64,000 bases of DNA from an uncultured Bacilli bacterium (GTDB lineage: Bacteria; Bacillota_I; Bacilli_A; RF39; UBA660), in NCBI GenBank assembly GCA_944358795.1, contig CALVRW010000011.1, positions 5,737-69,736 of the forward strand, read 5' to 3'. A program made the translations under genes and the position numbers. How positions within the stretch are numbered: position 1 is the first letter of the stretch; each line of letters begins with the position of its first letter. The notes under the pieces were generated by a model that was not told the origin of the DNA, did not search any database, and saw only the letters and a program-made list of their open reading frames with translations. This document shows, one piece after another, positions 2,024 through 46,015 of the stretch.

Positions 2024-2109
2024 TTTACTTCTTTTTTCTTTTATTAAGGCAAATACCATATGCATAAATGTACCTGGGTCATAAGATACATTAGATAAGG
2101 AAGGGAGAG

Positions 2110-2265
2110 ATGATGATGTTTGCAAGACGTAGAGGTTGCTGTAATCCTGGAATGGGGTATGCAATGAATCAAGGTCAATGTGGATGTATGCCACAACCAA
2201 TTGTTGAACCTGCTATTAATAAATGTGTTGAGAGAGAATTCTGTCATGAAGTACAACAAGTGTGA
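2110..2265 (+). CDS. Small (51 aa) Cys-rich peptide, MMMFARRRGCCNPGMGYAMNQGQCGCMPQPIVEPAINKCVEREFCHEVQQV
   Basis: A strong RBS GGAAGGGAG lies immediately upstream of three consecutive ATGs (2110, 2113, 2116), and the frame is clean to the TGA at 2263-2265. The ORF is absent from the ORF track because it is under 60 aa. The minus-strand ORFs that overlap it are probably spurious. Confidence 0.45.
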   Translation: MMMFARRRGCCNPGMGYAMNQGQCGCMPQPIVEPAINKCVEREFCHEVQQV

Positions 2266-2365
2266 TATTTTATGATAGACCAAAATATTTAAGGGATAAA
2301 TCAAGTTAAAGGCATTTTGATAAGAAATATCTTTTTGTGTGGTATACTATATATAGGTGATATTA

Positions 2366-3211
2366 ATGAAGATGAATGATTATATCAATATAGTTAAAAA
2401 AAATATTAAGAATGATAATTCGCAAATAATAATGATAAATCAGATTAAGCGATATTTTGATTATAAAGATAGACATATAGATTTAAAAAAATATGAAATA
2501 GGAGATGAGGTTTTTCTAAATAAAGGAACATTACTCCATGGAACATATAAAAATTTAGATGGGTTAAAAGAAATTGTAAATAATGGTTTAATTTCAAGTT
2601 GGTTCATAGATGGAAGATTATCTAAATATCCTAGTTCAGTTGGGGTATGGAATCTAAAACATGATTATAAATTATCTGAATATATTAATTTTTATTCTGG
2701 AGGAACGATATTTTATGCTGGTATATTTGAAAATGGAGTAGATACTCAGAAAAATAAGACTGCCATTATTCCGTATGATGAAATGAATAATATTATAGAT
2801 ATAACAACAAGTGTTAACTGTCATATGTGGACTTTAGAACAAACAAAAGAAGCAAGATTTATGCCTAGTTTAGTTCAAAATAATGTACAAATTGGCATTA
2901 TATTTAATGGACAAAATGATGAAGTAAGAGAATTGTTAAAAGGTGACATTTTATCTAATTCTATTAATGATGAAGATGTAAAAGAATTTGTTAATTCAAA
3001 TTATTATGAGAAATTTATAAGAGACAGAAAAAATAAAGATGATTTTTTTACGGATAGAGAAAGCGCAATTTTGTTTGGATTACCATCCAACTTGATAGAA
3101 GGTATATTAGTCGGTAGAAAATATGAAAAAGATAATCAGATTTTAAAAGAGATAAAATCGTTATTACCAGATTGTTATATATGTAACTTAGATGGTATTG
3201 TGATAGCTTAA
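2366..3211 (+). CDS. Hypothetical protein (about 281 aa); ends 13 nt upstream of the Fic gene
   Basis: Long ORF with RBS aggtga before the ATG at 2366 (the ORF track starts at GTG 2357). I recognised no motif. Confidence 0.5.
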   Translation: MKMNDYINIVKKNIKNDNSQIIMINQIKRYFDYKDRHIDLKKYEIGDEVFLNKGTLLHGTYKNLDGLKEIVNNGLISSWFIDGRLSKYPSSVGVWNLKHDYKLSEYINFYSGGTIFYAGIFENGVDTQKNKTAIIPYDEMNNIIDITTSVNCHMWTLEQTKEARFMPSLVQNNVQIGIIFNGQNDEVRELLKGDILSNSINDEDVKEFVNSNYYEKFIRDRKNKDDFFTDRESAILFGLPSNLIEGILVGRKYEKDNQILKEIKSLLPDCYICNLDGIVIA

Positions 3212-3224
3212 AGGAGTTTTAACT

Positions 3225-3974
3225 ATGGATATAAAAAAAATTAAAAACGAATTAATTAAACAAAAGGAATCAAAATTTAAAGGTAATATCTATCATTATT
3301 CACAGGTTAACTTTTCTTTTAATTCAAATAAGATTGAAGGGAGTAGATTAACTAGTGAACAAACAGAAGCGATATTTGATACATCTTCTTTTATTCCTAA
3401 AAGTGATGATTTAATTAAATTAGATGATTTAACTGAATCCAAAAATCATTTTAAATTATTTGATTATATGTTAGATCATGTAGAAGAATTATTGTCTAAA
3501 AATATGATAATTGAAATGAATAAGATATTAAAAAGAAATACTAGTGATGAAGAAAATCCTAGATATAATGTAGGTGGTTTTAAAGTTGTTCCTAATATAA
3601 TAGGATTAGTTAATGTTATCAATACAACTGCACCTGAAGATGTAGAACGAGAAATAGAAGAATTATTAAATGAATATAATTCTAAAACTAATATTACTTT
3701 AGAAGATATCGTTGACTTTCATTTTAGATTTGAAAGAATTCATCCTTTTGGAGATGGAAATGGTCGTGTTGGTAGAATGATTATGTTTAAAGAATGTTTA
3801 AGAAATAACATTATGCCATTTATTGTATTAGATGATGATAAACCTTATTATATGAGAGGTTTAAAGGAATATGAGAATGATAAAATGTTCTTAATTGATA
3901 CGATAAAGCACGAACAAGATTTGTATGAAGAAATGTGTAAAGAATTATTAAATTTTGATATAAAAGAAAAATAA
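3225..3974 (+). CDS. Fic/Doc family protein (probable AMPylator or phosphotransferase)
   Basis: Canonical Fic active-site motif HPFGDGNGRVGR (HPFx[DE]GNGRxxR). Confidence 0.85.
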   Translation: MDIKKIKNELIKQKESKFKGNIYHYSQVNFSFNSNKIEGSRLTSEQTEAIFDTSSFIPKSDDLIKLDDLTESKNHFKLFDYMLDHVEELLSKNMIIEMNKILKRNTSDEENPRYNVGGFKVVPNIIGLVNVINTTAPEDVEREIEELLNEYNSKTNITLEDIVDFHFRFERIHPFGDGNGRVGRMIMFKECLRNNIMPFIVLDDDKPYYMRGLKEYENDKMFLIDTIKHEQDLYEEMCKELLNFDIKEK

Positions 3975-4273
3975 TAAAGAACTAAACATCCTATAGAACT
4001 GTATTATTACAATTGGGATGTTTTTGTATACTTTGAATTGATAAAAGAAGTAATACTAAAATGAATCTTTTATCCATAAATTTAAGTGAGGTGTTTCAAG
4101 TTTATGGATAAATATAAGATTCATTATATATTTCATGAGAAGAACGATATGAATGATATTTTTATTAATGTGTTAAATAAGGAGTTAAAAAAGTTTATTT
4201 TATCAAATTGTAAAGACAAAAAAAGGAAAGATTCATCATCCAATCATTGTCTTACTTTAGAAAGAGGAAACAA

Positions 4274-5842
4274 TTGATTTATAACGTTAATCAAATATAT
4301 AGTGCGGGACTTTATATTAGACTATCAAGAGAAGATGATGATAAGATTTTAGAAAGTGAGAGTATAACGAATCAAAAGAGGTTATTACTTCAGTATGTGA
4401 AAGAAAATCATTTAACTGTTTATGATATATATGTTGATGATGGATATTCTGGGACAAATTTTGACCGACCAGATTTTAATCGATTACTCAGTGATATTGA
4501 ATTAGGTAAAGTGAATATGGTTATTACCAAAGATATGTCAAGATTAGGAAGAGATTATATTGGTACAGGAAATTTAATAGAAAAGTATTTTCCAGAACAC
4601 AATGTTAGATATATAGCAGTTACTGATAATATCGATACATTTTTAGATAGTTCTAATAATGATATCGCCCCATTTAAAGCAATAATGAATGATATGTACG
4701 CGAAAGATATTTCAAAAAAGATTAAATCTAGTTTACGTGCAAAGCAAAAAGAAGGAAAGTGGGTAAGTGGAAGATGCCCTTTTGGATATATGCAAGATCC
4801 TAGTGATAAGAATCACTTAGTAATCAATGAAGAGCAAGCATTCGTAGTGAAAAGAATTTATCATATGTGTTTGGATGGATTATCCTGTTTTAAAATAGCA
4901 AAACAATTAACGAATGAAGGAGTAAAAACTCCAGCACAATATTATAATTTTGAGTGGAAAAGTCATTATAATTTAAATTATGGAATATGGAATTCTAAAA
5001 CAATCAGAGATATATTAACGAATCAAATGTACATCGGAAATTTGGTTCAAAATAAAAGAAATAAAGTGAATTATAAAGTGAAGAAAATTGTTACCAATAA
5101 TCCTGAAAATTATATTGTTGTAGAAAATACCCATGAACCAATTATTGACAAAGATACTTTTTATGAAGTACAAAAAAGAATTCCTAAAAATGTAGGAAGA
5201 AACGAGAAAAAAGAAAATCATTTGTTAGATGGAATTTTATATTGTGGGGATTGTGGACATAGGATTGGAGTAACTTCTAGGAGAAAAAAGGATAACAGAT
5301 GTTATACGATTTGTAATTATTATAGAACTTATATGAAACAAAAGGTATGTACAACTCATTCGAATAATTATGACGAATTAGAAAAAGTAATTCTTAGTTC
5401 TTTAACTAATGTGTGTTTAAATTATATTAATGAAGATAAAATTAAAAATAATGTATTAAATAATTTAATTGAAGATAACAAAATTAATAACAAAAAAGAG
5501 TTAGAAATACTTACCAATGATATTAAACAAATAAATGATAATTTAGATATTATTTATATTGATAAATTAAATAAAAAAATAACTGAAGAACAATTTGGAA
5601 GAGTAAAAGTAAAATTAGAGCGGGAATTACATATAAAACAAAAAAGATATGATGATTTAAATAATGATATTAATAATACTGTCAATGAAGAATCTAAAAA
5701 TAAAATGATTCATGAGTACACTAAAAAATTTCTATCTATGAAAAAGCCTAGTAGGGAATTAATAATTAATTTAATTGATAAGATAGAAATATTTGAAGAT
5801 AAGACTATCAATATTAAGGTTTGTTTTAATAATTTTCATTAG
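4274..5842 (+). CDS. Large serine recombinase (resolvase/invertase N-domain plus recombinase and zinc-ribbon C-domain)
   Basis: N-terminal catalytic region GLYIRLSREDDD resembles the large serine recombinase YxRxSxxxQ/D motif. A Cys-rich stretch CGDCGHRIG...CYTICNYY and a coiled-coil tail are present. RBS aaagagga sits before the TTG at 4274; the ORF track uses TTG 4247, so the start is uncertain. Confidence 0.85.
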   Translation: MIYNVNQIYSAGLYIRLSREDDDKILESESITNQKRLLLQYVKENHLTVYDIYVDDGYSGTNFDRPDFNRLLSDIELGKVNMVITKDMSRLGRDYIGTGNLIEKYFPEHNVRYIAVTDNIDTFLDSSNNDIAPFKAIMNDMYAKDISKKIKSSLRAKQKEGKWVSGRCPFGYMQDPSDKNHLVINEEQAFVVKRIYHMCLDGLSCFKIAKQLTNEGVKTPAQYYNFEWKSHYNLNYGIWNSKTIRDILTNQMYIGNLVQNKRNKVNYKVKKIVTNNPENYIVVENTHEPIIDKDTFYEVQKRIPKNVGRNEKKENHLLDGILYCGDCGHRIGVTSRRKKDNRCYTICNYYRTYMKQKVCTTHSNNYDELEKVILSSLTNVCLNYINEDKIKNNVLNNLIEDNKINNKKELEILTNDIKQINDNLDIIYIDKLNKKITEEQFGRVKVKLERELHIKQKRYDDLNNDINNTVNEESKNKMIHEYTKKFLSMKKPSRELIINLIDKIEIFEDKTINIKVCFNNFH

Positions 5843-5877
5843 GATTATGATATAATAGTGTATTAAGAGGTGGTAGT

Positions 5878-7455
5878 ATGAGTATTTTAACAAGTGCAAG
5901 TAGTTCCTCTGTTAGCAGAGGTTATGATTATTATAAAAAAAATAAAGTTCGTAATGTAAAGCAATTAAATGATCATGAATTTGAAGGATATGTTGATGGA
6001 AGTTTAAAAAATCCTTATTATGTAAAAATAGATATAGCACATCCGAGAAAATCCTATTGTGATTGTCCTCATGCAAACGGAAATATTACTTGTAAACATA
6101 TGACTGCATTATATTTTGAACTATTTCCTGAAGAAGTGGAAGATTATGAATCATGGTTAAATAGTGATTATGATGAAGACGAAGAAGATGATTACTACGA
6201 ATATGATCGATATTATGACGATTATGATTATAGAGAATCTTCTAATTTTGAAAAACCATTATTTTTTGATGTAGTATTAGAAAAATACGTTAATGATTTG
6301 AGTATAGAAGAGTTAAAACAAACATTGTTAACAGAACTTAAAAGTAATGAAAAAATAACGTTTGAATTATATTTAGAAAAGAATTATAAAAAATATTTAC
6401 AAAATAATAGTGACGAGTTTGCGTTTTTAGATAAATTGAATAAAAAGGTACAAGATTTAACAGAATACTATAATTATGACTATAATGATTTTAATAAAGA
6501 AATATTAAATGTCAGACAAAAAAGAAAAATAGAAGAGTTATACAAAAACAAATCATTACAATTACAAATAGATAAAATATTATTAAACGAGAAATTAGCT
6601 GTATATACAGATTATAAGTGGATTGCCAAGTTTTATAAGAAAAATAAAAATAATGAAGAAATATATGAATTTTGTAATGTATTAAAAAACTATTTAGATA
6701 GTTTAAAACATTATAGTATAAAAAACACAGTTCCAAAATCAAATGTCTTAATCACAATACATTTATTAAATGATTTTAGTATAACAGAGTGTGCAAATCT
6801 GATGTTGAAAAACGCGAAATATTTACAATATATTGATTATATTGTTGAAAATAGTAATGATGTTTTAAATTTGTATAAATCATTTATGAAATTAATTGAA
6901 AAGAATTATTTTAAGAATAAAATGTATATTCCAAATGTACTATATAGATTTGTTATGGTTACTGATTTTGAAAATAATGATATAAATAAAAATTATTATT
7001 TGTATAGTTATTTATGTTTAGGTCATGTTGAATATTTAGATATTTTGGGATATTATTTAACAGCAGACGAAATTATTAAGATAGTAGAAAATAAAACTAA
7101 AGACATTTTCTTGCTTGTTAAACTTTATAAATTTTATGACAAAAAAGAAAAGTTATGGAATTTATTAATTGATAGTAATTATAAATATCTATTGTTAGAT
7201 AATATAGAAATATTAAAAGGAAAATACAATGATGCGTTATATAATCATTTTATAGATGAATTTTATAATATTTTAAAAGATGGTAAGAACAGGGAGACTT
7301 ATCATAAAGCATCGAAATATATAAGTGCAATTTCAAAATTAAATAATGGTAATGATCTAATAGAAAAAATAGTAATAGATTTAAAAAACTCAGATTATCA
7401 GAAATGTTCAGCATTATTTGATGAAATCAATAAGTCTATTAGCAATAATAGTTAA
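5878..7455 (+). CDS. SWIM zinc-finger domain protein with an acidic D/E/Y-rich stretch
   Basis: CxCxnCxH pattern CDCPHANGNITCKHMTALYFE is typical of SWIM fingers. It is followed by the acidic run DYDEDEEDDYYEYDRYYDDYDYRE. RBS aagaggtgg. Confidence 0.55.
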   Translation: MSILTSASSSSVSRGYDYYKKNKVRNVKQLNDHEFEGYVDGSLKNPYYVKIDIAHPRKSYCDCPHANGNITCKHMTALYFELFPEEVEDYESWLNSDYDEDEEDDYYEYDRYYDDYDYRESSNFEKPLFFDVVLEKYVNDLSIEELKQTLLTELKSNEKITFELYLEKNYKKYLQNNSDEFAFLDKLNKKVQDLTEYYNYDYNDFNKEILNVRQKRKIEELYKNKSLQLQIDKILLNEKLAVYTDYKWIAKFYKKNKNNEEIYEFCNVLKNYLDSLKHYSIKNTVPKSNVLITIHLLNDFSITECANLMLKNAKYLQYIDYIVENSNDVLNLYKSFMKLIEKNYFKNKMYIPNVLYRFVMVTDFENNDINKNYYLYSYLCLGHVEYLDILGYYLTADEIIKIVENKTKDIFLLVKLYKFYDKKEKLWNLLIDSNYKYLLLDNIEILKGKYNDALYNHFIDEFYNILKDGKNRETYHKASKYISAISKLNNGNDLIEKIVIDLKNSDYQKCSALFDEINKSISNNS

Positions 7456-7544
7456 TTAAATTTTAACAATTGGATACAATAATAATTAAAAAATAATTGA
7501 CAAATGTATAAACATTGTATATACTTAAAGTGGGTGGAGATGAT

Positions 7545-7808
7545 ATGATGGAAGCAAGACTTCAAAAATGGGGAAATTCAGACGGAATAAGAATTCCTAG
7601 TAGTTTTTTAAAATCACTTAATTTAAAAACAAATGATGTCGTCGAATTAATACAAAAAGAAGATTCTATTATTATTTCAAAACCTAAAAAAAAGCATTTA
7701 TCATTAGAAGAAAGAATTGAAATGTATGAACAATTACCAGATAATGAAAAAGGAACAGTAGAATCATATGATTGGGGAGAAGATATAGGAAAGGAAAAAT
7801 TTTATTAA
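7545..7808 (+). CDS. mazE: MazE/AbrB-fold antitoxin
   Basis: MMEARLQKWGNSDGIRIPSSFLKSLNL matches the SpoVT/AbrB swapped-hairpin antitoxin signature. Its stop overlaps the toxin start in a TAATG junction. Confidence 0.7.
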   Translation: MMEARLQKWGNSDGIRIPSSFLKSLNLKTNDVVELIQKEDSIIISKPKKKHLSLEERIEMYEQLPDNEKGTVESYDWGEDIGKEKFY

Positions 7809-8140
7809 TGTATATACCAAAACAAGGAGATATATGTTATATGGATTTTGCACCAACAAAAGGTCATGAACAAGCTGGAGTAAGACCTGCTATCGTAATT
7901 AGTAAAGATTACTATAATAAATATACGAATATGGCAATTATTTGCCCAATTACAACAAATACAAAAAAGTTCCCTACTCATTATGAAATTAAAAACACAA
8001 AAAGAGTGAAAGGTTCTGTTTTATGTGAACATATTAGAAGTATAGATTTTAATGTTCAAAAATTATCATTTATTGAAAAAATAAAAGAAGAAGAGTTAGA
8101 AGAAATAATAGATATAGTAAATGGGATAATAGAAATTTAG
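7808..8140 (+). CDS. mazF: MazF/PemK family endoribonuclease toxin
   Basis: MYIPKQGDICYMDFAPTKGHEQAGVRPAIVIS is characteristic of PemK/MazF. The ATG overlaps the mazE stop. Confidence 0.8.
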   Translation: MYIPKQGDICYMDFAPTKGHEQAGVRPAIVISKDYYNKYTNMAIICPITTNTKKFPTHYEIKNTKRVKGSVLCEHIRSIDFNVQKLSFIEKIKEEELEEIIDIVNGIIEI

Positions 8141-8305
8141 TATATCAAAAAAGGCCACACACATATTTGCCCAATCCATACACATGTAATAAATCGTCAT
8201 ATCTATAATCATACGTATACACCACAATTTAGTTGTTCAGAAGAAAATCAAGTTGTGAATAATGACCCAGGTTGTAGTGGTGGATTTATGAATCAAAATT
8301 TCTAA
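8141..8305 (+). pseudogene. Start-less His/Cys-rich reading frame (…GHTHICPIHTHVINRHIYNHTYTPQFSCSEENQVVNNDPGCSGGFMNQNF*), candidate remnant of a small spore-coat-like peptide gene
   Basis: The frame is open from the base after the mazF TAG to the TAA at 8303-8305. It contains no in-frame ATG and only a late GTG. It shares the NPG…MNQ segment with the 2110..2265 peptide. Confidence 0.3.
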
Positions 8306-8336
8306 AAAATAAAAAGGTTCTCCTTTTTATTTTTTT
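8306..8336. terminator. Rho-independent terminator-like hairpin (aaaaagg ttct cctttttatttttt)
   Basis: GC-containing stem followed by a T-run. Confidence 0.5.
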
Positions 8337-8374
8337 GAGTATATGATAATATAGAATTGAAAGTAGGCGTTTTA

Positions 8375-8773
8375 ATGAAAGTATTGACAATCAAAGAACC
8401 ATGGGCATCTTTAATTATTGATGGGTATAAAGAATATGAATTTCGTAGTTGGAAAACATCTTATCGGGGAAAAATATTAATTCATGCTGGTATGAGTTTA
8501 GAACAAGATATGCTAAAACGATTTCAAGATTATCATTTAAATTGTCAAAAGGGAGCGATTATTGGAGAAGCAGAGTTGACAGATTGTATTTTAGTTGATG
8601 ATGAATTTAATGAAGCATTACAAAAGATTGATCCGATTGTATATGGGAGAAGTAATCATACAGAAACATATGCATGGAAATTAGAACATGTAAAAAAATA
8701 TAAAAATCCAATTTCAATAAAAGGAAAATTAGGATTATGGAATTATGAAGGAGAGAAAGAAGATGACCTATAA
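8375..8773 (+). CDS. ASCH domain protein
   Basis: LTIKEPWASLIIDGYKEYEFRSW resembles the ASC-1 homology (PUA-like) fold signature. The ORF track starts at TTG 8357. Confidence 0.5.
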   Translation: MKVLTIKEPWASLIIDGYKEYEFRSWKTSYRGKILIHAGMSLEQDMLKRFQDYHLNCQKGAIIGEAELTDCILVDDEFNEALQKIDPIVYGRSNHTETYAWKLEHVKKYKNPISIKGKLGLWNYEGEKEDDL

Positions 8774-25437: not shown

Positions 25438-25523
<86 letters not shown>

Positions 25524-42225: not shown

Positions 42226-42684
42226 ATGGATAAGTTTAATCGAACACTTCGTGGTTATGATCCAATTGAAGTCAATAACTTTTTAGATAAAGTTATTAAG
42301 CAAGTGGAAATAATGGTTGGGGAATTAAACGAAAAAGATGAAAAGATTGCTCGTTTAGAGGCTTATGAAAAAGAAAATGAAATGTTAAAACAAAAATTAG
42401 AACAATATCGTAGAACAGAAGAAACGATGAATCGGGCAATTATGATGGCACAAAAAACATCAGATCAGATGAAAGTAGCTGCTCATCATGAATGCGAAGT
42501 TATTATTAATGATGCGAAACGTAATGCGAATCGTATTATCAATGAAGCCCTTTTAAAAGCTGAAAAAACAGAGCAAGAAGCAAATATGTTAAGACGTAAT
42601 ATTAGTATTTTTAAACGTCGATTAAGAAGTATCATCGAAGCACAACTAGAAATGGTTGATGAAATTGACCATGTAGAATTATAA
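42226..42684 (+). CDS. divIVA: DivIVA domain protein
   Basis: N-terminus FNRTLRGYDPIEVNNFLDKV plus a coiled coil. Confidence 0.85.
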   Translation: MDKFNRTLRGYDPIEVNNFLDKVIKQVEIMVGELNEKDEKIARLEAYEKENEMLKQKLEQYRRTEETMNRAIMMAQKTSDQMKVAAHHECEVIINDAKRNANRIINEALLKAEKTEQEANMLRRNISIFKRRLRSIIEAQLEMVDEIDHVEL

Positions 42685-42699
42685 AACAATCGAGAAAGA

Positions 42700-42895
42700 C
42701 GGTATATAACTAGAGTGATAGAAAGTTCGTGGTTGATGGAAACGAATACGAAGGTTATATATAGATCACTTTTGATGTGACTAATGAAGGTTAGTCCGGG
42801 TAACGCCGTTATCGTATTAAGTGTATAAACTCATTATAAAATAAGGTGGTACCGCGGGGAAACTCGTCCTTATAATAAATGAGTTTTTTTGTTAT
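42700..42895 (+). promoter_or_regulatory. T-box riboswitch leader (tRNA-sensing antiterminator) of ileS
   Basis: Conserved T-box sequence aaggtggtaccgcgg at about 42844-42858. It is followed by the terminator hairpin aaactcatt…aatgagttt and a T-run immediately upstream of the ileS RBS. Confidence 0.75.
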
Positions 42896-42916: not shown

Positions 42917-45900
42917 ATGGGACAATTTAAAGAATTAAGTAAAGAAAAAGTAAGTGTAGTAGAAAGTAAGATTTTAAAAGAATGGAAAGAGAAAGATATT
43001 TTAAATTTAACGATTGAAAATAGAAAAGGAAAAGAAGATTTTGTTTTCTATGATGGTCCAATTTATGCGAATGCGAAACCTGGAATTCATCATGTTTTTG
43101 CGAAAACAATTAAAGATGCTTTCTGTAAGTATAAAACGATGCGTGGGTACCGTGTTTTAAGAAAGATTGGATTAGATACACATGGACTTCCAATCGAAGT
43201 AAATGTTGAAAAAAAATTGGGATTTAAATCAAAAACTGATATTGAAGAATTTGGAATTGAAAAATTTTGTGAAGAATGTAAAAGCGAGACAGATAGTAAT
43301 ATTGATGAAGTAAAAAAAGTAACGGATATGATGGGACAATTTATTGATTGTGATCATCCATATGTTACTTGTAGTAATGAATATATTGAATCTGAATGGT
43401 GGATTGTAAATGAATTAAATAAAAAAGGACTACTTTACCATGGAAATAAAGTATTACCATATTGTCCTAGATGTGGTACGGAACTTGCAAGCCATGAAGT
43501 ATCACAAGGATACAAAGAAGTTAGTGTTAATACGGTTATTGTACCATTTAAATTAGTAGATAAAGATGAATATTTCTTAGTATGGACTACAACACCATGG
43601 ACTTTAATGGCCAATGTTGCAGTATGTGTAAACCCTGATTTAGAATATGTAAAAGTAGAGTCTCGTGGATATAAATTTATTTTATGTTCTAGTTTATTAC
43701 AACAAGTATTAGGGGATGACTATGAAATATTAGAAACATATAAGGGAACTGACTTAGTTGGAATGAAATATGAACAATTTATGCCATTTGTTAAAGTAGA
43801 AGGAAAAGCTTTTGAAGTAATTGCTGATACATATGTTACAGATAGTGATGGTACAGGTATTGTTCATATCGCACCTGCTTATGGGGCAGATGACAACCGT
43901 ATTTGTGTTGCGAATGGAATTGCTTTTGTGAATCCAGTAGGAACAGATGGATGTTATAAAGAAGGACCATGGAAAGGAACGTTAGTAACGGATCCAGAAT
44001 TAGAACTTGATATTATTAAATGGTTAAAAGAGAATGATAAATTATTTAAAAAACAAAAGATGACGCATGATTATCCACATTGTTGGAGATGTAAACAACC
44101 ACTTATTTATTTTGCAAAACCAGCATGGTATGTAAGAAATACTGCATATAAAGAAGAAATTATTAAAGCAAATGAAACAGTAAACTGGTATCCAGATTAT
44201 ATTGGAAAGAAGAGATTTGCTAACTGGTTAGAAAATATGATTGATTGGGGTATTTCAAGAAATCGTTATTGGGGTTGTCCACTTCCAATTTGGACTTGTG
44301 ATTGTGGTCATTTTGAAACAATTGGTTCTGTTGCTGAATTAAAAGAAAAAGCAGTTGAAAAAGTAGAGGATAATTTAGAACTTCATCGTCCATATGTTGA
44401 TCAAATTCATCTTACTTGTCCACATTGTGGAAAAAAGATGAGTCGTGTAAGTGATGTAATGGATGTATGGTTTGATTCAGGAGCGATGCCATATGCACAA
44501 TTCCATTATCCATTTGAAAATAAAGAATTATTTGAATCACAATTTCCAGCTGATTTTATTGCAGAAGGGGTAGACCAAACAAGAGGTTGGTTCTATGTAT
44601 TAATAGTTCTTTCTACTTTAATTAGTGGAAAATCTAGTTTCAAAAATGTTGTAGTAAACGATATGATGTTAGATGCTAATGGAAAGAAAATGAGTAAATC
44701 AACAGGAAATATTATTAATCCAATTGAGATTATGGAACAATATGGAGCTGATACAGTTCGATTCTATATGTTATATGCATCTCCAATTTGGACTCCATTA
44801 AAATTTGATGTAGAAGGATTAAAAGAAGTATATTCTAAATTCTTTAATACTTTAAAAAATACTTATAATTTCTTTGCTCTTTATGCGAATACTGATCAAG
44901 TAGATCCAAGAGAATTTGAAGTTGATTATCAAGATAGAACATTAATTGATAAATGGTTGCTTTCTAAATATCATCAATTATTAAAAGATGTGACAAGTTA
45001 TTATGAAGAATATGATTTAACAAAAGTAGTACGTAGTATTACAAACTTTGTAAATGAAGATTTATCAAATTGGTATATTAGAAGAAATCGTAGAAGATTC
45101 TGGGCAAGTGAATTAGATCTTGATAAAAAAGCGGTTTATAAAACAACTTATGAAGTATTGGTAGGACTTTGTGAAATGATTGCTCCAATTGTACCTTATC
45201 TTTCAGAAGAAATGTATCAAGCATTAACAGGAAAAGAATCTGTTCATTTAGCAGACTTCCCAACTTATGATGAAAAGTTGATTGATAAAGCAATTGAAGA
45301 AAAAATGGATTTAGTTCGTGACTTAATTAGTTTAGGAAGAAATGCCAGAGAAGAAGCAAAAATTAAAGTTCGTCAACCAATTAGTAAAGTAATTATTGAT
45401 GGTAAGAATAAGGAAATTATTGGAGACCTTACAGATTTAATTTTAGAAGAATTAAATGTAAAAGAAGTTGTTTATGAGGAAAACTTAAGTAACTTCATGA
45501 ACTTTATTGTTCTTCCTAATTACAAAGTAGCGGGTCCAATCTTTGGTTCTAATATTAAAGCATATGCAAAAGCATTAACAGAACTTTCTTTAGAACAAAT
45601 TATGAGTCTACAAAGCGAGGAAAATATTGATATTTTAGTAGATGATGTAGAATACAATATTTCTAGTGATATGGTAGTAATTCGTATTTCTTCAAAAGAA
45701 GGATTTAATGCACAAATGGAACACAATCACTTCATTATTTTAGATACAGAATTAACAGATGATTTAATTTATGAAGGAATTGCTCGTGAACTTGTTTCTA
45801 AAGTACAAAATTTAAGAAAGAATAAAGATTTTGAAGTAGCAGATCGTATCTTGTTATATTATAATGGAGACGAAGAGTTTGAAAAAGCGCTTACTAAATT

Positions 45901-46015
45901 TAAAGAATTTGTACAAAATGAAACATTAGCTTTAAATATTACAAAGAAAGAGAATCTAGAAGTAGCTTATGATTTAAATGGACATGAAGTATATCTTGAT
46001 GTTGAAAGAGTATAG
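42917..46015 (+). CDS. ileS: Isoleucyl-tRNA synthetase (type 2-like)
   Basis: HIGH-region variant PGIHHVFAKTIKD…YKTMRG and KMSKS as KKMSKSTGN. 1032 aa with no C-terminal zinc finger of type 1. Confidence 0.9.
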   Translation: MGQFKELSKEKVSVVESKILKEWKEKDILNLTIENRKGKEDFVFYDGPIYANAKPGIHHVFAKTIKDAFCKYKTMRGYRVLRKIGLDTHGLPIEVNVEKKLGFKSKTDIEEFGIEKFCEECKSETDSNIDEVKKVTDMMGQFIDCDHPYVTCSNEYIESEWWIVNELNKKGLLYHGNKVLPYCPRCGTELASHEVSQGYKEVSVNTVIVPFKLVDKDEYFLVWTTTPWTLMANVAVCVNPDLEYVKVESRGYKFILCSSLLQQVLGDDYEILETYKGTDLVGMKYEQFMPFVKVEGKAFEVIADTYVTDSDGTGIVHIAPAYGADDNRICVANGIAFVNPVGTDGCYKEGPWKGTLVTDPELELDIIKWLKENDKLFKKQKMTHDYPHCWRCKQPLIYFAKPAWYVRNTAYKEEIIKANETVNWYPDYIGKKRFANWLENMIDWGISRNRYWGCPLPIWTCDCGHFETIGSVAELKEKAVEKVEDNLELHRPYVDQIHLTCPHCGKKMSRVSDVMDVWFDSGAMPYAQFHYPFENKELFESQFPADFIAEGVDQTRGWFYVLIVLSTLISGKSSFKNVVVNDMMLDANGKKMSKSTGNIINPIEIMEQYGADTVRFYMLYASPIWTPLKFDVEGLKEVYSKFFNTLKNTYNFFALYANTDQVDPREFEVDYQDRTLIDKWLLSKYHQLLKDVTSYYEEYDLTKVVRSITNFVNEDLSNWYIRRNRRRFWASELDLDKKAVYKTTYEVLVGLCEMIAPIVPYLSEEMYQALTGKESVHLADFPTYDEKLIDKAIEEKMDLVRDLISLGRNAREEAKIKVRQPISKVIIDGKNKEIIGDLTDLILEELNVKEVVYEENLSNFMNFIVLPNYKVAGPIFGSNIKAYAKALTELSLEQIMSLQSEENIDILVDDVEYNISSDMVVIRISSKEGFNAQMEHNHFIILDTELTDDLIYEGIARELVSKVQNLRKNKDFEVADRILLYYNGDEEFEKALTKFKEFVQNETLALNITKKENLEVAYDLNGHEVYLDVERV

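Follow-up and report, generated by a model that had tools for sequence, protein, structure and literature searches.

A mobile element carrying a large serine recombinase splits a CotD-family spore coat gene in an uncultured gut Bacilli bacterium and may be excised during sporulation

Here, we report that a 5,905-bp element with its own large serine recombinase splits a spore coat gene of the CotD family (cotD) in a 64,000-nt stretch of DNA from an uncultured Bacilli bacterium (contig CALVRW010000011.1; hereafter the window, all coordinates below being window positions). Judged from the alignments, it is essentially certain that the element was inserted at a CA dinucleotide inside the His-50 codon of cotD. 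We consider the fuller picture probable, i.e., site-specific insertion into cotD followed by excision in the mother cell by the recombinase and F1, the small open reading frame (ORF) directly upstream of it. The element splits a CotD-family gene, its precise removal restores the ORF, relatives carry the gene uninterrupted, and its attachment (att) sites hold a short core within inverted repeats; in our best reading it is a new addition to the intervening elements of sporulation genes of the skin, SPbeta, gin and yin kind. No report of cotD as an interrupted gene was found in the searchable full-text literature.

A sequence-only reading of this stretch had described the locus as an accessory island bracketed by two paralogous small Cys/His-rich peptide genes, the right one lacking a start. 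The frames themselves are there: a 51-codon ORF at 2110–2265 behind a strong ribosome-binding site (RBS) on the left, and on the right a frame that is open from 8141, the base after the mazF stop codon, for 54 codons to a stop at 8303–8305, with no start codon until its last five codons. The paralogy did not hold, as the two peptides give no BLASTP alignment even at E <= 100 and fill consecutive, non-overlapping columns of the multiple alignment; by these alignments the two ORFs are the N- and C-terminal halves of one CotD-family gene. The block that had been taken as shared between them is a 9-nt coincidence (atgaatcaa, encoding MNQ) in N/Q/G-rich tails of a kind that both ends of intact homologues have too, and the NPG of the left peptide is DPG in the right one. 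The right frame needs no start codon, non-AUG or otherwise, because it is the 3' half of a gene begun by the left ORF, and a tandem pair with a truncated right copy is unsupported, relatives having a single gene at the locus. We therefore regard as practically negligible the account in which two paralogous genes flank the island, the right one truncated or started at a non-AUG codon: only the shared atgaatcaa and a similar composition speak for it, and the pieces abut perfectly in the 261 intact homologues.

Joined in silico, the two pieces make a 96-aa ORF, and the Pfam CotD family (PF11122) matches across the junction, marginally, at 22.8 bits against a gathering score of 22; the resemblance to CotD that had been guessed from composition was thus correct. 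A search of ~5.8 billion proteins returned 261 intact homologues of 82–102 aa that align end to end with the join (coverage 94–98%, best identity 86%), many of which carry PF11122 and some of which NCBI calls 'CotD family spore coat protein'. The synteny comparison that the earlier reading had called for gave three empty sites (L001–L003), in which an intact 94-aa cotD lies in the same gene order as in the window (M16 peptidase, cotD, ASCH, VanY, P-type ATPase) and the island is absent. With the unbroken gene present in such close relatives and flanked there by the same neighbours, the junctions are fixed to the base. In DNA alignment with L001–L003, where the intact gene reads ...GAAGTACAACATATTTGTCC..., the left junction of the window is ...GTACAACA / AGTGTGAT (in longer form ...GAAGTACAACA / AGTGTGAT) and the right junction ...CACACACA / TATTTGCC, the slash marking the boundary. 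Removing the element in silico rebuilds ...CHEVQ-H-ICPIHTHV.... The left ORF reads on past the junction to a TGA at 2263–2265, two codons beyond it, which is supplied by the left end of the element. One of the earlier suggestions was that a single coat-like gene had received a mobile, sporulation-type element with a large serine recombinase, and it is the one that these junctions bear out.

The features of the locus, all on the + strand, are as follows.

2080..2088, + strand: sigma-K-type -10 box of the cotD promoter (CATAAGATA), 30 nt 5' of the ATG
2110..2258, + strand: 5' half of cotD, promoter-bearing, 49 codons plus the CA of the His-50 codon
2231..2284, + strand: attL, with host arm ...CATGAAGTACAA, crossover CA at 2257–2258 and element arm AGTGTGATATTTTATGATAGAC, aligned to the empty sites L001–L003
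2259..8163, + strand: the intervening element, 5,905 bp, its genes all on the cotD strand
2308..2348, + strand: left-end module, a terminator-like hairpin and then an extended -10 promoter TGGTATACT (2340–2348) for the first cargo slot
2357..3211, + strand: 284-aa cargo gene, function not assigned, with a weak match to phrog_9614 only
3225..3974, + strand: Fic-domain cargo gene (Pfam Fic 6e-15; PADLOC PDC-S04 1.4e-99)
3981..4027, + strand: intrinsic-terminator-like hairpin 3' of the Fic gene (-12.2 kcal/mol, z -2.5)
4047..4093, + strand: control region of the recombination module, with a palindromic block GAAGTAATACTAAAAT, a CATAAATTT box at 4075–4083 and the RBS GAGGTG at 4088–4093
4104..4277, + strand: small ORF F1, 57 aa, candidate recombination directionality factor
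4274..5842, + strand: large serine recombinase, 522 aa, most likely starting at the TTG at 4274, catalytic motif YIRLSRED
5878..7455, + strand: 525-aa cargo gene with a weak SWIM-like zinc-finger motif (Pfam SWIM E 0.058, sub-threshold)
7497..8140, + strand: mazEF cargo (mazE 7545–7808, mazF 7808–8140) with its own promoter at 7497–7525
8136..8189, + strand: attR, with element arm TTTAGTATATCAAAAAAGGCCACACA, crossover CA at 8162–8163 and host arm TATTTGCCCAATCCATAC
8162..8305, + strand: 3' half of cotD, from the His-50 codon CAT onward, 47 codons plus stop, matched by the CotD C-half hidden Markov model (HMM) from its position 1
8300..8339, + strand: intrinsic terminator of cotD (-13.8 kcal/mol, z -5.65)

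Six genes lie between the halves, all on the same strand. Of the contents named earlier, the Fic gene, the large serine recombinase and mazEF are there, together with the 284-aa ORF; the SWIM assignment stays below threshold. The GC content of the element is 23.9%, compared with 27–29% in the flanks. An Rfam scan of the window found a T-box leader (42681–42874, 5' of a 1,032-aa ORF at 42917–46015) and one transfer RNA gene (25438–25520), ordinary housekeeping features, and nothing else.

We surveyed the family by scanning one genome per GTDB species, which gave 555 recombinase relatives; in the best 80 loci we looked for cotD halves with two HMMs, one for each half of the intact CotD proteins. 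All 80 come from metagenome-assembled genomes (MAGs) of uncultured gut 'Bacilli', 'Tenericutes', 'Mollicutes' or Erysipelotrichaceae. A C-half lies downstream of the recombinase in 60 of them, on the same strand and starting exactly at profile position 1, the junction residue; seven more have N-halves upstream of the recombinase, ending in ...HEV(P/Q)(Q/H)x and a stop; four further loci of the same clade lie on short or truncated contigs; and the other nine, with 54–57% recombinase identity, have no cotD halves. Among loci of the clade with at least 59% recombinase identity, then, cotD is split (at least one half found) in 67 of 71, always at the same codon, and no complete contig of this clade has the recombinase at a position other than cotD. 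At species level, at least 71 genomes of uncultured gut Bacilli contain the clade, and the element family is a large one in uncultured gut bacteria that is apparently without published description. Both junctions were mapped in 39 loci (38 aligned, one further placed by hand), all with the same junction, for elements of 2,814–8,709 bp. Every one of the 38 scorable in-silico excisions yields a full-length CotD ORF of 82–150 aa that aligns across the junction with intact proteins; the product from L054 is 97.9% identical to the intact protein P0001, making a close occupied/empty pair. At least three CotD subfamilies are targeted.

The sister recombinase clade (L074–L083, 54–57% identity) keeps an F1-like small ORF directly 5' of the recombinase, yet lies outside cotD, and the cotD-type arm motifs found no att sites in it. 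The element at L076:7499–12312 (MAG Bacilli bacterium VEG01_HIC_0010) seems to lie within an amidase/LysM-repeat gene: the fragment on its upstream side ends in ...YYVVQKGDTIFMEE and a stop, and the downstream ORF starts with KGDSLYKIAQKF. A second recombinase lies just upstream in L076 (5035–6705), and the elements there may be in tandem.

The crossover CA is invariant across the mapped loci, and the att sites are nearly so. The attB consensus, CATGAAGTaCca-CA-TgTttgtCCAaTtcATAC, is asymmetric, and the in-silico attP, GTCTATCAAAAAAGGGCAAGGA-CA-AGTGTGATAATTTATGATAGAC, has symmetric outer arms (GTCTATCAnAAA/TTTnTGATAGAC) about 22 bp to each side of the centre; symmetric attP arms with an asymmetric attB are the usual layout for sites of large serine recombinases. 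The junction sequences produced in silico are ...CATGAAGTACAACATATTTGCCCAATCC... for attB and ...AAAAAGGCCACACACAAGTGTGATATTTT... for attP. Please note that mazF holds, at 7939–7950, an exact 12-nt copy TATTTGCCCAAT (coding ..IICPI..) of the host arm of attR and attB at 8164–8175 (..HICPI..), which is probably chance in AT-rich DNA and could also be a pseudo-half-site.

The recombinase and F1 form the conserved core. By its domains, PF00239 (resolvase), PF07508 (recombinase) and PF13408 (Zn_ribbon_recom), all above cutoffs, and by its match to the phrog_95 integrase (2e-111), the window protein is a bona fide large serine recombinase. Its homologues are 519–522 aa long, and thousands of relatives are in the databases, including well over a hundred 90%-identity clusters that are ~78–85% identical to the window copy. 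The nearest solved relatives are the TnpX catalytic domain (4.8e-27, the best) and SprA (E 4e-25), the nearest named ones, TnpX, SprA, CcrB and XisF, are all distant, and phage recombinases reach at most 35% identity. The recombinase is present in 39 of the 39 elements, and so is an F1-like ORF directly upstream of it (35 full length, three short, one with a premature stop). F1 has the consensus MDKYKINYIF..DINDIFIKVLNKELKKYI..., 573 database homologues of 57–58 aa, called as a gene in hundreds of assemblies, and a ratio of nonsynonymous to synonymous substitution rates (dN/dS) of 0.41, i.e., it is under purifying selection. In the window its TGA overlaps the TTG start of the recombinase (ATTGA), suggesting that the two are translationally coupled. 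Its position makes F1 a candidate recombination directionality factor, a role for which we find the case evenly balanced. Upstream, a control region with a palindromic block and a CATAA(A/G)TTT box is conserved across the 35 elements with full-length F1. The box lies 26–29 nt 5' of the F1 ATG, the same spacing as in cotD promoters, and shares their CATA; as a cotD-like sigma-K promoter we rejected it, the matrix score being poor and the class different.

Clustering of all element ORFs separates this fixed core from a variable cargo, which occupies slots on both sides of the core, all on the cotD strand. In the window the 284-aa ORF and the Fic gene lie to the left and the SWIM-like gene and MazEF to the right. 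Across the 39 elements the counts are Fic 27, MazEF 9, NERD-like 8, ASCH-fusion 8 and SWIM-like 6. The window Fic protein matches the PADLOC model PDLC04836 for PDC-S04 over residues 3–242 of 249 (E 1.4e-99), a candidate system whose anti-phage role is predicted, and the MazEF pair consists of adjacent PF04014 (MazE antitoxin, 1.5e-11) and PF02452 (PemK/MazF toxin, 4.7e-26) proteins. Singleton cargo, read by eye, resembles a type II restriction-modification set, an MgtA-type ATPase, GNAT, ATP-grasp-like and HNH nuclease proteins, and one singleton protein matches the PADLOC HEC-06 and GmrSD-like (DUF262-type) models. The first ~100 nt of the element (window 2259–2365) are conserved in most elements (L004–L068), whichever gene comes next, and contain a hairpin, weak in the window copy (-3.5 kcal/mol), an extended -10 TGnTATAAT, an RBS and first codons reading 'MILM'. 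Different cargo genes seem to have been exchanged behind this left end, which would serve as a constant platform for their expression. The hairpin after the Fic gene separates cargo from recombination module and has equivalents in other elements. A sigma-70 promoter scan did no better than shuffles except 5' of mazE, where the promoter is sigma-70-like (TTGACA-17-TATACT, 7497–7525). The host ASCH-domain gene 3' of cotD (8357–8773) resembles the N-terminal ASCH domain of cargo family F10 (8 elements; e.g., L009, element positions 105–1022), with MKVLTIKEPWASLI..EFRSWKTSYRGKILIHAG versus MKVLSLTEPCATLI..ETRSWKTTYRGELYIHAG; past capture of flanking host DNA is one possibility.

The element moves. 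Those of L005, L006 and L041 are 99.7–99.8% identical over 5.6 kb and those of L010 and L028 98.8% identical, the flanks of these near-identical elements are unalignable or only ~75% identical, and the cotD genes that they interrupt belong to different subfamilies. Such copies in unrelated flanks show that the element integrates actively and is horizontally mobile between species. It does not look like a prophage or a conjugative element by any of our searches. We found no megablast match to 50,697 phage records, so a prophage origin was rejected; Pfam shows no relaxase or conjugation-type domain in the window element; and the functional annotations in PHROGs are limited to integrase/DNA invertase and MazF-like, the other matches being families of unknown function. 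Nor is it of the Tn4451 type, as it has no Mob gene and the family has a single conserved CA target in cotD (67 of 71 loci).

How the element could leave cotD is suggested by the promoter of the gene and by comparison with studied systems. A perfect CATAnnnTA sigma-K-type -10 box lies 25–38 nt 5' of the ATG in 33 of the 39 interrupted cotD genes, against a chance expectation of ~0.009 per locus. The CATAnnnTA consensus for sigma-K is known from B. subtilis, in which cotD is a sigma-K-dependent inner-coat gene, and we infer from the box and this parallel that the interrupted genes are expressed in the mother cell. A block reading RGGCAAAT...CATATGCA, ~20–35 nt 5' of the -10 box in many species (window 2040–2075), is reminiscent of GerE-type (TRGGY) regulator sites, which are known at cot promoters of B. 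subtilis. The recombinase elements studied experimentally inside mother-cell genes (sigK, spoVFB, spoVR, spsM, gerE and yabG) all excise in sporulation, using a small directionality factor (PMC5595907, PMC4191935, PMC5025042, PMC10747680). A further parallel, with skin elements, is the place of the recombinase at the element edge beside the 3' gene fragment (bioRxiv 10.1101/2022.02.25.481979). By analogy, excision of the present element in the mother cell seems rather likely; the event, its timing and the directionality role of F1 are what we infer. Integration would proceed by attP x attB recombination with the recombinase alone; in sporulation, F1 would act as directionality factor and the recombinase would join attL x attR in the mother cell, so that the element leaves as a circle and the sigma-K-driven cotD ORF (...CHEVQ-H-ICPIH...) is rebuilt, while the forespore chromosome would retain the element.

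Several observations weigh against this proposal. Searches of Pfam, PHROGs, NCBIfam and the PDB, the last with the SprA-SprB structures and the SprB/YotN chains included, gave no match for F1, and its AlphaFold model, a single long helix, is of low confidence (predicted local distance difference test score 64). The F1 of L004 (element positions 1426–1599) has an in-frame stop (..ICKN-stop-KCEIP..) next to an intact recombinase and intact halves of cotD, which is either a locked-in copy or an assembly error. The F1 CATA box scores a median of 0.9 bits on the cotD-derived matrix versus 13–16 for cotD sites; it may be of a sigma-E-like type, or may form an inverted repeat together with the start codon. 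Such a repeat, TTATCCATA...TATGGATAA (4073–4109), brackets the F1 RBS and start codon and is kept in most elements; 87.6% of cells pair in this hairpin, with covariation not above controls, and its role could be that of an operator or, on read-through transcripts, of a translational hairpin. The attP junction was absent from the viral contigs, metagenome contigs and fetched loci searched with a pattern that covers 26 of the 39 in-silico attP sites, the metagenomes giving 16 attL matches. No sporulation gene besides cotD was found among the 30 window ORFs scanned, and the ability of the uncultured hosts to sporulate is itself presumed. Horizontal movement and recent insertion also weaken the intact cotD halves as evidence for a restorable gene: insertions can be recent, so intact halves are no proof of selection, and the dN/dS of the interrupted halves (0.34–0.58) is uninformative because elements move between hosts.

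Some of these points would sit well with a selfish or defence element for which cotD is merely a safe harbour, its recombinase recognizing a conserved sequence and inactivating a dispensable or redundant coat gene, with excision for transfer only. Recent spread as 99.8% identical copies in unrelated flanks is expected of such an element, selfish or defence islands typically carry such cargo (MazEF, Fic/PDC-S04, restriction-modification, GmrSD-like), the targeting of at least three CotD subfamilies hints at paralogue redundancy, and both the attP junction not found in the contigs searched and the mismatch of the F1 promoter box with the cotD sigma-K-type matrix fit as well. However, neither half is damaged in any of the 38 scorable insertions, and all of them can be restored to the base; the target belongs to the late mother-cell genes, the only class for which developmental excision of such elements has been demonstrated repeatedly (PMC5595907, PMC10747680); and the recombinase is always paired with a small coupled ORF of known directionality-factor size; moreover, transfer functions are absent, which leaves excision for transfer only unexplained. 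We consider this account unlikely, though a serious one.

A reversible switch in growing cells is improbable in our judgment. The recombinase and F1 would then excise and re-integrate the element in a subpopulation, as in active lysogeny or phase variation, making the expression of cotD and cargo heterogeneous and independent of the mother cell. In C. botulinum, yin is found in excised form whatever the growth phase (PMC10747680), both reactions are in principle open to the recombinase, and the L054/P0001 pair (97.9% identity) shows occupied and empty forms that are close. But a non-replicating circle of 3–9 kb would be quickly lost from dividing cells, loss would be punished by MazEF and restriction-modification cargo, no attP-form contig was found in the searches, and cotD is needed only late in sporulation.

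If excision in the mother cell is confirmed, cotD joins sigK, spoVFB, spoVR, spsM, gerE and yabG as a gene rebuilt by programmed excision in sporulation. Beyond the cultured model species it would be by far the most widespread case, the recombinase having hundreds of variants in gut metagenomes. The family would also offer a compact natural pair of recombinase and directionality factor; its att sites, ~46 bp long, are known to the base, and natural attB variants number in the dozens, which is useful for recombinase-specificity work and genome-engineering toolkits. It further shows small defence and toxin genes (Fic/PDC-S04, restriction-modification, GmrSD-like, MazEF) being carried from one gut species to another by elements in which no transfer machinery is visible. 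For annotation there is a warning, i.e., start-less 'orphan' frames beside recombinases may be gene halves. A bolder idea, which we offer as speculation and think quite doubtful, is that these elements are miniature cargo shuttles: a portable two-gene excision module (F1 and recombinase) would have radiated onto several late mother-cell genes, cotD and the amidase/LysM gene of L076 among them, excision in the doomed mother cell would be cost-free, and the circle would be freed at mother-cell lysis and transferred by free-DNA uptake. Such a route would explain near-identical elements in different species despite the lack of phage or conjugation genes, and, by the presence of the family, a large 'Mollicutes-like' group among the uncultured gut Bacilli would be recognized as spore-forming.

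Among known systems, the cotD element is closest in concept to gin, which is likewise non-phage with a tiny target gene, and to the minimal skin elements. The gin element, in gerE of Bacillus cereus ATCC10987, splits a very small mother-cell sporulation gene, encodes GirC (a large serine recombinase) and GirX (a small directionality factor), has imperfect inverted repeats around a short common core and occurs as identical copies in different strains, but it is 28.6 kb long, has three recombinases and its excision was shown experimentally (PMC5595907). The cotD elements are 2.8–8.7 kb long with one recombinase, target a structural coat gene, reside in uncultured gut Bacilli and are known from sequence alone. 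The skin elements in sigK (B. subtilis, C. difficile and 12 more species; bioRxiv 10.1101/2022.02.25.481979, PMC5025042) also have the recombinase at the element edge just 5' of the 3' gene fragment; they occur in many species, share no other gene common to all, and go down to 2.6 kb with two proteins (bioRxiv 10.1101/2022.02.25.481979). The target differs, as sigK is a regulator, so that excision gates the whole late programme, whereas cotD is a sigma-K-dependent structural gene; F1, too, belongs to a new family. A skin-like element has been noted in the coat gene cotJC (bioRxiv 10.1101/2022.02.25.481979); cotJC and spoIIID are bioinformatic cases of intervening elements, the former being a precedent for a coat gene as target. 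SPbeta in spsM (SprA/SprB), yin in yabG, vfbin in spoVFB and vrin in spoVR are likewise large-serine-recombinase elements in mother-cell genes restored by excision, with small directionality factors of 53–72 aa; unlike the cotD family, which has no phage genes and carries swappable defence/toxin cargo, they measure tens of kb and are either prophages or similar to them. Tn4451/Tn4453 (TnpX), clostridial mobilisable transposons, resemble the element in size (~6 kb), in having one large serine recombinase and in excising as circles, but have a Mob protein and an oriT and insert at many GA sites, in contrast to a family with no relaxase and one strictly conserved target. In the heterocyst elements of Anabaena (nifD, fdxN/XisF, hupL), a gene is restored when a terminally differentiated cell excises the element during development, and XisF is a large serine recombinase, the second-best NCBIfam match of the window protein, below cutoff; phylum, cell type and targets are all different, and the likeness is in logic only. 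What is new compared with the known intervening elements is the cotD target, the small size together with swappable defence/toxin cargo, the prevalence in uncultured gut lineages and the clear recent horizontal spread.

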